Positions 17,696-19,729 of a stretch of DNA of 64,000 bases are shown here, one piece after another; the first letter of the stretch is position 1; each line of letters starts with the position of its first letter. A model generated the notes under the pieces. The model was given only the letters and a program-made list of their open reading frames with translations. It did no database searches and was not told the DNA's origin. A program made the translations under genes and the position numbers. This DNA is from an uncultured Streptococcus sp. GTDB taxonomy: Bacteria > Bacillota > Bacilli > Lactobacillales > Streptococcaceae. The stretch lies in assembly GCF_934229725.1 (NCBI RefSeq), contig NZ_CAKQDX010000010.1. One strand, given 5' to 3'.

Positions 17696-17843
17696 TTGAT
17701 GATGAGAACTTATAAAAAGTTTATGGATAGTGTAATAGTCACTCAATGATACTTTTTTTCACAACAGAAAGTACCATTCAATAACAAAAGGCATCACTAA
17801 TCAGATTAAAGAGAACATTACTAAACCTATTTTCATATAATTA

Positions 17844-18011
17844 CTATTTCTTTTTTAAAGCATTAATAATAGAACGTGTTGCTGATTTCGTTAAGCCCTG
17901 ATTTTTAGGATGTGTCCTTAAATAGGAATGGACTTTGGTACCAGTATCTGAACGTGTGTAACCATTTGTATTAACAATCTTATTACTTAACAGTTTATCC
18001 AATAAAGCCAT
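17844..18011 (-). CDS. Small basic protein (55 aa), hypothetical; last gene of the AT-rich island operon
   Basis: ATG at 18011 has RBS GAGGAG 7 nt upstream (the track start at 18026 is GTG without an RBS). Translation MALLDKLLSNKIVNTNGYTRSDTGTKVHSYLRTHPKNQGLTKSATRSIINALKKK. Starts 17 nt downstream of the 183-aa gene stop. Confidence 0.45.
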   Translation of the reverse strand: MALLDKLLSNKIVNTNGYTRSDTGTKVHSYLRTHPKNQGLTKSATRSIINALKKK

Positions 18012-18028
18012 TATACATCTCCTCACAA

Positions 18029-18580
18029 TTAGTAATTAAAATTTATACTGAATGAATTCATTATACCATGGTTATCACTATGCATATTAGCAGTCCACCC
18101 AATATTTTCACCACTCTTCATTTTATGCTTATAATAGTTTCCATCTTCTGCTTTTTTTACTTTTTCGTCTGATTCCTCAACTTTCTGTCCTGGATTAACT
18201 GCAGCAAATTCTGATATAGATACTGACTGCTTTCCTTTCGGATCAATACTAGATTGTGACGAACTAAATGGCTCCGCTTCAATACTATTGTTAATTACAA
18301 AAGTTGACTCAATATAAATTCTTTTATCCGTTAAGTTATCAATAATAACATTTCCACCAGTTCTTGTTATTTTAATATTTTTATCACTATATAGTTCTTC
18401 CGTTTTTGCTACTGTTTTTTTCGAACCCGTAATACTTTGTCCTACTTTTGACGTATTATTGCCATTAGTAGAATTTTCATTCGAAGAATCTCTAATAGCC
18501 AAAAAAATTATTAACAATGTAAATATAAATCCAAAAACTGCAAATACATAAACGCTAACATTAAAAATTTTCTTTAACAT
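18029..18580 (-). CDS. Membrane-anchored (N-terminal signal-anchor) Ser/Asn-rich protein, hypothetical
   Basis: 183 aa. N-terminal TM VYVFAVFGFIFTLLIIFLAI. Strong RBS AAAGGTGAGGAAAAG. Very low GC. No recognisable domain. Confidence 0.5.
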   Translation of the reverse strand: MLKKIFNVSVYVFAVFGFIFTLLIIFLAIRDSSNENSTNGNNTSKVGQSITGSKKTVAKTEELYSDKNIKITRTGGNVIIDNLTDKRIYIESTFVINNSIEAEPFSSSQSSIDPKGKQSVSISEFAAVNPGQKVEESDEKVKKAEDGNYYKHKMKSGENIGWTANMHSDNHGIMNSFSINFNY

Positions 18581-18595
18581 ATCTTTTCCTCACCT

Positions 18596-19231
18596 TTATT
18601 TTGGAGTTTCAATTGTCACTTTTGCCTCATGGTCCAAAGATTTAATCATTGTAGAGTAATACTTCTCAGCTGATTCATTCAAAAGTTTATTGTAATCCTT
18701 TAAATAACCTTGCTGTTCTTTATTTGATAATCCTTTTGTAGCAGCCTCACCAGTATCAACATTTTGGGTTGATGCACTAAGTAATCCTCCGCTAGTATCA
18801 TATAACTTATAAGGTTTATCCTTGTCTAATTCAACACCAATAACCTCATATTGAGGTAAGGTAACCTTATAATTGTGTTCCCTGTCACTCTCAATATTAA
18901 CTCCTTTCTTTATTCCAAATTTAGCTGTATAGTTAAGAATAATAATCGCTCGCTTTTCTGAGCCTGGAATTACAATTTTAGTGCCAAATAGTTTTGTATT
19001 ATTCTCGATAGTCTTAATTTTTTGAATTCCTACATTTAGTAAAACTACTTCATGAACCTTTTCTATCTGCTTAATACTAGAATAAGTTTCAGTTTGCTGA
19101 TTATGAGATAAAGCATTCTCAATATTCTGAACTGGTTTTAGCCAGAATCCTAACATTAAAATTAAGGCTAAGACGATTAGGTAAATCCATAAAGCTATCT
19201 TTTTATTCAATATCTTTTTAACTAATTTCAT
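18596..19231 (-). CDS. Membrane-anchored (N-terminal signal-anchor) protein, hypothetical
   Basis: 211 aa. N-terminal TM IALWIYLIVLALILMLGFWL. RBS AGGTG 7 nt upstream. Low GC. No recognisable domain. Confidence 0.5.
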   Translation of the reverse strand: MKLVKKILNKKIALWIYLIVLALILMLGFWLKPVQNIENALSHNQQTETYSSIKQIEKVHEVVLLNVGIQKIKTIENNTKLFGTKIVIPGSEKRAIIILNYTAKFGIKKGVNIESDREHNYKVTLPQYEVIGVELDKDKPYKLYDTSGGLLSASTQNVDTGEAATKGLSNKEQQGYLKDYNKLLNESAEKYYSTMIKSLDHEAKVTIETPK

Positions 19232-19249
19232 TCAGATGCACCTACATTC

Positions 19250-19375
19250 CTACTTCTTCAAAAACAACTGGATTAACAATCCTGCAATCACAATACCAGC
19301 TGCAATTAGAGGGTTCAACATCGCTATTCCTACAAGAACTAAAATAGCTAAAATCCATAAAACTACTTTTATCAT
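19250..19375 (-). CDS. 41-aa hydrophobic peptide (two predicted membrane helices), hypothetical; first gene of the AT-rich island operon
   Basis: Minus-strand ATG at 19375 preceded by AAAGGAGAT. Translation MIKVVLWILAILVLVGIAMLNPLIAAGIVIAGLLIQLFLKK. Ends 18 nt before the 211-aa gene. Too short for the supplied ORF track. Confidence 0.45.
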   Translation of the reverse strand: MIKVVLWILAILVLVGIAMLNPLIAAGIVIAGLLIQLFLKK

Positions 19376-19433
19376 CTTATCTCCTTTAAAATACGAATAC
19401 CATAATCTCACCTAAATTTAATTTTCTGTAAAC

Positions 19434-19460
19434 ATTATATATATATATATACGTTGTCAA
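19434..19460 (-). promoter_or_regulatory. Candidate promoter of the AT-rich island operon with a (TA)8 dinucleotide repeat in the -35/-10 spacer
   Basis: Minus strand reads TTGACA(19460..19455)-ACG(TA)6-TATAAT(19439..19434). The TA repeat occupies 19436-19451. Spacer is currently 15 nt. Confidence 0.5.
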
Positions 19461-19729
19461 CGTTTTCTTGAAAATAGAATATATTTTTAACTATTTATCA
19501 GATTATTATAATTTAAATAACTTTATCTCATTTTATATTTAAAAATAAATATGCAAGTCACAGCTATACACAAAACAAGACTTTCTGCTGTGCTAAAGGT
19601 AAGAGAAGCATTATTGCTTCTCTCAATCGGAATATTTGAGACTTAGGCTCAAATCTTAGGAATGGCATTCCGTTAGGAAGTCGCTTCCGTCCGTAGCACC
19701 CAAGAAAAGTCTTAAATAAAAACGAAAAA

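Follow-up and report, generated by a model that had tools for sequence, protein, structure and literature searches.

A polymorphic low-GC cassette of small envelope proteins, with a TA repeat in its promoter spacer, at the clpL/hit site of the Streptococcus salivarius group

The operon between hit and clpL and its core gene pair

The 64,000-nucleotide stretch of DNA from an uncultured Streptococcus sp. analyzed here (contig NZ_CAKQDX010000010.1; referred to as the window) harbors, between clpL and the hit operon, a single minus-strand operon of four closely packed genes, ~1.75 kb in extent and placed between two terminators. Its products are a 41-residue hydrophobic peptide (p41), two N-terminally membrane-anchored proteins of 211 and 183 residues (p211 and p183) and a basic protein of 55 residues (p55); coordinates are collected in Table 1. 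The GC content of segment 17700-19600 is 0.292, compared with a mean of 0.405 (standard deviation 0.033) over 1.9-kb stretches of the window; among 1242 such stretches it is the lowest or second-lowest, and the sole equally low stretch overlaps it. An earlier note on this DNA had drawn attention to the visibly lower GC, to the two bounding terminators, to minus-strand open reading frames (ORFs) of 41, 211, 183 and 55 codons and to the absence of any adjoining transposase, integrase or tRNA gene, and had read the whole as a compact envelope/peptide operon of foreign-looking composition. All of this is borne out: public gene callers yield the identical four genes on contigs encoding identical proteins, and the only tRNA of the window is located at 13469-13555. 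Of the three proteins that the note took to be membrane-anchored, p211 and p183 are, and p55, which has no hydrophobic segment, is not. A five-codon ORF (MVFVF) with the ribosome-binding site (RBS) AGGTGA exists as claimed, but not at 19409-19392, where the note had placed it (Table 1).

p211 belongs to a recognized family. It is a member of Pfam DUF4230 (PF14014; 51.9 bits against a cut-off of 27, E 1.2e-13, covering positions 1-148 of the 148-position profile), a family that is itself without an assigned function. The AlphaFold2 model of p211 has the architecture of the family, an anchor followed by a domain of ~150 residues, with the linker that joins them modeled at low confidence. Across 17 diverse sequences the DUF4230 ectodomain contains an invariant D-T-G (residues 159-161) as well as invariant Lys, Tyr, Ser and Thr residues; the D-T-G falls within the loop that the model predicts with least confidence, and the structure shows no similarity to that of aspartic proteases.

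The partner of DUF4230 is p41. A scan of one genome per species yielded 129 related loci, and 80 of them were retained; counts made with a hidden Markov model (HMM) of the peptide refer to 85 loci. Directly upstream of DUF4230, inspection found a peptide with the motif LNP encoded at 42 of the 80 loci, and the peptide HMM at 51 of the 85. The peptide ORF specifies 37-44 residues and ends within ~20 nt of the DUF4230 start (18 nt ahead of it in the window); the LNP is central and invariant, the N-terminus is basic, and the C-terminus is usually KK or RK. The family is unannotated, and annotation pipelines mostly leave it unnamed. Peptide-DUF4230 loci, which extend across the Lactobacillales, were found in Streptococcus (salivarius, bovis, mutans and sanguinis groups), Enterococcus, Lactovum, Leuconostoc, Fructobacillus and one Lachnospiraceae genome, in neighborhoods that are mutually unrelated (metG, yqeG, clpL/hit, rhamnose genes and others). 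DUF4230 copies of the S. equinus/S. macacae type lie upstream of yqeG, as described for SMU_1803c, the PF14014 protein of S. mutans. The idea that DUF4230 is concerned with ribosome biogenesis (PMC13393454) rests on one of these many unrelated neighborhoods. The papers found to name DUF4230 give it no function and make no mention of an LNP peptide partner, of cassette polymorphism or of a TA-repeat promoter.

Table 1. Features of the cassette region, numbered from the first letter of the window
Feature	Position	Strand	Description
Hairpin terminator	17661-17690	both	13-bp perfect stem; common to the hit operon (+) and the cassette operon (-)
p55	17844-18011	-	55-aa basic soluble protein; ORF, also 55 aa in public annotation
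p183	18029-18580	-	183-aa protein; N-terminal membrane helix, low-complexity linker, Ig-like beta-sandwich ectodomain
A7 homopolymer inside p183	18152-18158	- (T7 on +)	possible frameshift site
p211	18596-19231	-	DUF4230 protein; membrane helix 3-29, disordered linker 30-58, alpha/beta ectodomain 60-208
p41	19250-19375	-	41-aa hydrophobic peptide; central LNP motif, C-terminal KK; partner of DUF4230
Five-codon ORF MVFVF and its RBS	19386-19413	-	ORF 19403-19386; RBS AGGTGA 19413-19408
Promoter	19434-19460	-	-35 TTGACA 19460-19455; 15-nt spacer ACG+(TA)n 19454-19440; -10 TATAAT 19439-19434
(TA)8 run	19436-19451	-	tandem repeat
Short-hairpin run	19625-19690	+	in the spacer between the clpL terminator and the cassette promoter
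clpL terminator	19728-19759	-	upstream border of the cassette region; 14-pair hairpin, then T run

p41 is predicted to form a membrane hairpin with both of its ends in the cytoplasm, and DUF4230 to be a single-pass protein with its alpha/beta domain facing outward. The two may form a membrane complex in which the peptide is a small subunit rather than a secreted product. p41 is read as a membrane subunit because it is too hydrophobic (grand average of hydropathicity, GRAVY, 2.15) and too uniformly apolar for a secreted cationic bacteriocin: 85% of its residues are hydrophobic, and charge is confined to the two ends. In loci of the Granulicatella/Carnobacterium type, the upstream gene instead encodes a four-helix protein of 104-121 residues whose last hairpin resembles p41, down to a C-terminal LLFKK.

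These properties also bear on two quite different views of the peptide. One of them, that p41 is a leaderless bacteriocin, exported without a leader and killing competitors while the anchored proteins serve immunity or export, had been put forward in the earlier note and is not borne out. A length of ~40 residues and the lack of a leader would suit class IId, and the surrounding small membrane proteins have no assigned function. However, the peptide has no amphipathic cationic face, and its conserved LNP and the basic residues at both ends are what a membrane hairpin would be expected to have. Searches of Pfam and NCBIfam returned no bacteriocin family match, no double-glycine leader was found, and the operon, consisting of four genes only, includes neither an ABC exporter nor a bacteriocin-type immunity gene (the EcsAB transporter genes nearby belong to the conserved flank, beyond the divergently oriented hit operon). 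We regard a bacteriocin as very improbable.

The other view is that p41 is a membrane-damaging toxin, akin to type I toxins or small holin-like peptides, that DUF4230 neutralizes it, and that the pair constitutes a selfish module of addiction or competition, which would account for its mobility. The peptide is small, very hydrophobic and basic at its ends; the module occurs on plasmids and near insertion sequence (IS) elements; the surroundings include other toxin-antitoxin genes, namely YefM/YoeB in the window and ParE/Phd and Fst in S. sobrinus; and DUF4230 without the peptide, which is present at 34 of the 85 loci, is what would be expected of orphan immunity genes. Against this, the peptide gene in most species comes first after a promoter of the consensus form TTGACA-17-TATAAT and has a strong RBS, an unusual situation for a toxin; as the first gene of a four-gene operon, p41 does not have the layout of a type I toxin-antitoxin locus. 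Searches against toxin families, Fst, Ldr and Hok among them, gave no match, and neither an antisense RNA nor a matching antitoxin RNA family of Rfam was found. The peptide-like C-terminal hairpin of the four-helix Granulicatella-type protein is also better suited to a structural subunit than to a toxin, and we consider the toxin interpretation unlikely.

The TA repeat in the promoter spacer

On its minus strand the window reads TTGACA, ACG, (TA)8, ATG. The last TATA of the repeat, together with the AT that follows, makes up the -10 hexamer TATAAT, and the simple-sequence repeat sits exactly between perfect -35 and -10 hexamers that are separated by 15 nt. Repeat-free S. salivarius alleles have TTGACA, a 17-nt spacer and TATAAT at the homologous place, and 18 loci of the sanguinis group likewise combine TTGACA and TATAAT with a spacer of 17 nt. 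Repeats occupy the same promoter position in peptide-DUF4230 operons of S. panodentis, which has (AT)8 and a 17-nt spacer, and of S. cristatus ATCC 51100, which has (AT)9 and a 19-nt spacer.

Among 28 contigs with a leader of the window type, the repeat has 8 TA units in 22, 9 in 4 and 6 in 2, counts that derive from assemblies of different samples and not from switching within one strain. Differing counts occur inside each cassette type (cassette types are described below), and one pair of contigs with 9 and 8 units, respectively (L094 and L103), is 100% identical over 1500 bp on either side of the repeat. The earlier note's suggestion that expression is repeat-controlled is supported as plausible by these facts: the TA run is a promoter spacer and comes in 6, 8 or 9 units among natural contigs, one pair of which is otherwise identical.

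Slipped-strand change in the TA run would alter the distance between the -35 and -10 elements. With (TA)9 the spacer would have its optimal length of 17 nt and the promoter would be on; with (TA)8, as in the window, the spacer of 15 nt would make it weak; with (TA)6 and 11 nt it would presumably be off. Expression would then be heritable yet reversible, in the style of a contingency locus. On the strength of its placement and natural variation, we think it rather probable that the TA run has a regulatory role.

There is a precedent. In Haemophilus influenzae, TA repeats lie between the -35 and -10 elements of hifA and hifB and cause phase variation through the promoter spacer. The arrangement described here shares with hif the TA dinucleotide spacer between hexamers, and its natural variants differ by whole units that change the spacing. 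It differs in that the host is a Gram-positive commensal and that a single promoter takes the place of a divergent pair. No report of phase variation by simple-sequence repeats in S. salivarius was found in a limited literature search.

Alternative cassettes, allele divergence and mobility

The genes that flank the cassette (clpL, hit, a gene for a 99-residue protein, and ecsAB) specify products that share 90-98% identity with their counterparts in S. salivarius-group genomes, and these genomes have a low-GC cluster at the same clpL/hit place. Every S. salivarius-group contig examined has the site filled, and contigs from human metagenomes show at least three differing types of cassette there; the site is thus not an empty/occupied polymorphism. 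The term "island" used in the earlier note is accordingly justified by composition but not in the sense of an insertion that is present in some strains and absent from others. Type A, the type of the window, comprises p41, DUF4230, p183 (or a 180-residue form of it) and p55. Type B comprises p41, DUF4230 and a lipoprotein of 242-245 residues. Type C has neither p41 nor DUF4230 and consists of a 165-residue lipoprotein, a 114-residue four-helix membrane protein and a 116-residue anchored protein with an acidic tail. (Type C is found at L105 2907-4217 and also in L104, L106 and L108-L111; none of its three proteins has a Pfam match.) The exact p41 sequence of the window is indexed in 823 blocks of a public assembly collection, and all of the 24 contigs read carry it.

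The three types can share one promoter and the RBS AGGTGAG. In type C this RBS starts the gene of the 165-residue lipoprotein; in the window it precedes the five-codon ORF instead, and this mini-ORF is absent from the non-repeat alleles (L001-L003, L030). Because the same promoter and RBS start the lipoprotein gene in type C, MVFVF is probably a recombination scar and not a leader peptide.

DUF4230 alleles at the salivarius site have diverged far more than their surroundings. Synonymous divergence (dS) in DUF4230 is 1.2-2.1, with nonsynonymous divergence (dN) of 0.25-0.32, as compared with dS of 0.12-0.29 in clpL and 0.13-0.50 in hit; nucleotide identity is 36-80% inside DUF4230 and 90-100% in most flanking 100-bp stretches. 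The high dS relative to the flanks argues for old allele classes that are kept, or repeatedly imported, at one site, and against fast positive selection on one lineage. The ratio dN/dS is low, 0.1-0.27 for p41 and 0.13-0.36 for DUF4230, which identifies both, by their pattern of substitution, as real genes under purifying selection.

Mobility is apparent from other contexts of DUF4230, the GC content of which is below that of its surroundings in nearly every lineage (mostly 0.27-0.34 compared with 0.35-0.45). The gene is found on plasmids of Lactococcus and Enterococcus: in pIL6 of L. lactis (L112) it is located between a type I restriction-modification operon (hsdRMS) and a PIN_8 gene, and in pEG81-1 of E. 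gallinarum (L113) it adjoins a Dam/AlwI pair and an IS30 transposase. In Enterococcus sp. AZ126 (L026) it follows hsdR. Restriction-modification adjacency in these three contexts hints at an association with defense islands, although the cases are few. In the mitis group (L063 4338-6697; L061-L080), DUF4230 lacks the upstream LNP peptide; together with an ISL3-type transposase it is bracketed by a 31-nt palindromic end sequence in two copies. Whole contigs of 2.2-2.4 kb (L066, L069, L076, L079) consist of just the transposase and DUF4230. This suggests that the mitis-group unit is a multi-copy IS with DUF4230 as its passenger.

The genes that follow the core pair vary. In the window allele the cargo is the membrane-anchored, Ig-like p183 and a small basic cytoplasmic p55. 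Close relatives of p183 are confined to the S. salivarius group. An exhaustive profile search of 1.84 billion representatives retrieved 30 proteins, among them lipoproteins of 306-337 residues with the same C-terminal domain of ~125 residues. The dN/dS ratio of p183 is 0.4-0.8, and in S. salivarius 85-06 (L003) A8 replaces the A7 of the window at 18152-18158 and breaks the reading frame. The A7 run may be a second slip site, or the p183 gene may be decaying. Many database relatives of p183 are truncated or frameshifted.

For p55, neither a transmembrane segment nor a family match was found. Homologues with 65-98% identity are present in S. sobrinus (directly after DUF4230), S. caballi (directly before it), S. 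hyointestinalis and S. henryi; in the last of these, p55 directly follows a 230-residue protein that is probably a divergent DUF4230 (Pfam DUF4230 over the whole domain at E 0.006, which is below the cut-off; hhalign E 5e-4). Elsewhere p55 homologues occur after a DUF3862 lipoprotein and, alone, in a Tissierellia genome. In other species DUF4230 often adjoins further anchored beta-sandwich proteins or lipoproteins, including DUF5067/DUF4352-like proteins in S. sobrinus, S. tangpeifui and Streptococcus sp. DD10, a 179-residue protein in S. gordonii and a 230-residue lipoprotein in the mitis group. Across streptococci, the site upstream of yqeG seems to be a second hot spot for cassettes. (In S. 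henryi, L117 2282-3329 and L118, that site has an anchored protein of 230/255 residues followed by the p55 homologue and a 48-residue zinc-ribbon-like ORF.)

A more prosaic explanation of these findings is that the operon encodes an ordinary envelope housekeeping factor, a constitutive helper of membrane or wall, with a low GC content that merely reflects a composition rich in Lys, Asn and Ile, and with a neutral TA run. Constant occupancy of the site in the S. salivarius-group contigs examined (and, similarly, of the DUF4230 site of S. sanguinis, at that species' own location), purifying selection on p41 and DUF4230, and the strong, constitutive promoter of most species are all compatible with such a factor, as are mostly housekeeping neighbors and the lack of a biofilm phenotype on deletion of SMU_1803c. 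In contrast, the existence of type C cassettes implies that the pair is dispensable, the divergence of alleles is 5-10 times that of the flanks, and the gene is found in plasmid and IS contexts, with a chromosomal site that changes from one species group to the next. The repeat, too, is placed exactly between the hexamers, an arrangement that recurs in a second species group (S. panodentis, S. cristatus). We judge a plain housekeeping role to be unlikely, if somewhat less so than a toxin.

Two other parts of the window and one stretch adjoining the cassette deserve mention. Four consecutive short hairpins at 19560-19700 are 87-93% conserved in related loci and single-copy in the window; the hairpin run contains a 17-nt unit repeated 2.1 times and partially matches Rfam SSRC8_2 (Streptococcus sRNA 8) with 30.5 bits and E 4.9e-6, below the gathering score of 72. 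The YefM/YoeB-type antitoxin/toxin pair, encoded on the minus strand at 22599-23117, is part of a further low-GC stretch immediately upstream of clpL; at least one contig that is otherwise collinear (L100) lacks the pair. Beside gatB, at 31366-33174, is the stretch of the window with the second-lowest GC (~0.29-0.30), which encodes a 127- and a 437-residue polytopic membrane protein on the minus strand.

Interpretation and relation to known systems

The anatomy of the cassette and its behavior in the population, as described above, are held with high confidence. The interpretation that we favor, with a probability that we place about midway between acceptance and rejection, is that the segment is one allele of a polymorphic, contingency-type and probably phase-variable cassette of envelope proteins, with the LNP peptide and DUF4230 as its core. 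A single sigma-70-type promoter would drive the whole operon of small cell-envelope proteins, and the population would retain deeply diverged DUF4230 alleles along with entire alternative cassettes, swapped through the conserved flanks. The likeliest role for the proteins would be a change in, or a screen over, the cell surface or membrane, as protection from an external agent (phage or competitor molecules, for example) whose action favors diversity and switching. This protective surface role, to which mobility, diversity and putative switching together point, is tentative and on balance doubtful. Still more speculative, and in our estimate improbable, is the broader proposal that LNP peptide and DUF4230 are the core of an undescribed mobile surface-protection system of the Lactobacillales, chromosomal or plasmid-borne, that excludes phage or membrane-active competitors, is maintained as deeply diverged alleles by balancing selection and is switched by TA repeats. 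On that proposal the cassette would be the first contingency locus driven by repeats to be described in the S. salivarius group.

A number of observations weigh against the favored interpretation or parts of it. Most of the sampled contigs have (TA)8, and about half of these are apparently one clone; assembly error at a 16-nt microsatellite may contribute to the differences in TA count, and a spacer of 15 nt may still allow some transcription. The peptide-DUF4230 pair is not obligatory, as the peptide-less loci show. The S. mutans homologue SMU_1803c could be deleted without a biofilm phenotype (PMC13393454). Neighborhoods are mostly housekeeping in character, restriction-modification genes being adjacent in ~4 of ~25 distinct contexts. 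With respect to phage, none of the four proteins matched a PADLOC-DB 2.0 family at E <= 1, tblastn of the 211-, 183- and 55-residue proteins against 50,697 phage genomes gave no match, and a Foldseek search of BFVD with the DUF4230 model gave no match with E <= 0.001.

The last three results, together with the absence of phage genes next to the cassette, bear on its comparison with superinfection exclusion (Sie). Lactococcus Sie2009 and Ltp of S. thermophilus phage TP-J34 are membrane-anchored superinfection-exclusion proteins of dairy phages and are encoded by prophages. p211 and p183 resemble them, as far as sequence and models go, in being small, N-terminally anchored proteins with an outward domain, low GC and variability between strains. 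They differ in that the cassette has no prophage around it and no match in phage genomes or BFVD; the earlier note's proposal of a Sie-like phage-exclusion set is not supported in its prophage-type form. The pneumococcal blp locus provides a parallel of another kind, in that its bacteriocin/immunity region is variable between conserved flanks. Like blp, the cassette occupies a fixed chromosomal site and combines a shared regulatory region with sets of small membrane-associated genes that alternate between strains; unlike blp, it lacks double-glycine peptides, regulators or transporters of the blp type, and any bacteriocin family.

Were the operon to encode an ordinary envelope protein behind a neutral microsatellite, the finding would be merely of local interest. 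DUF4230 is a widespread family that becomes experimentally approachable through its micro-peptide partner, its behavior as a mobile and allele-rich cassette and, in one lineage, a likely TA switch. S. salivarius is a dominant commensal of mouth and gut and a probiotic species, in which a surface module that is switchable and varies between strains could influence phage sensitivity, competition or interaction with the host, and the length of the TA run could serve as a marker of expression state in metagenomes.

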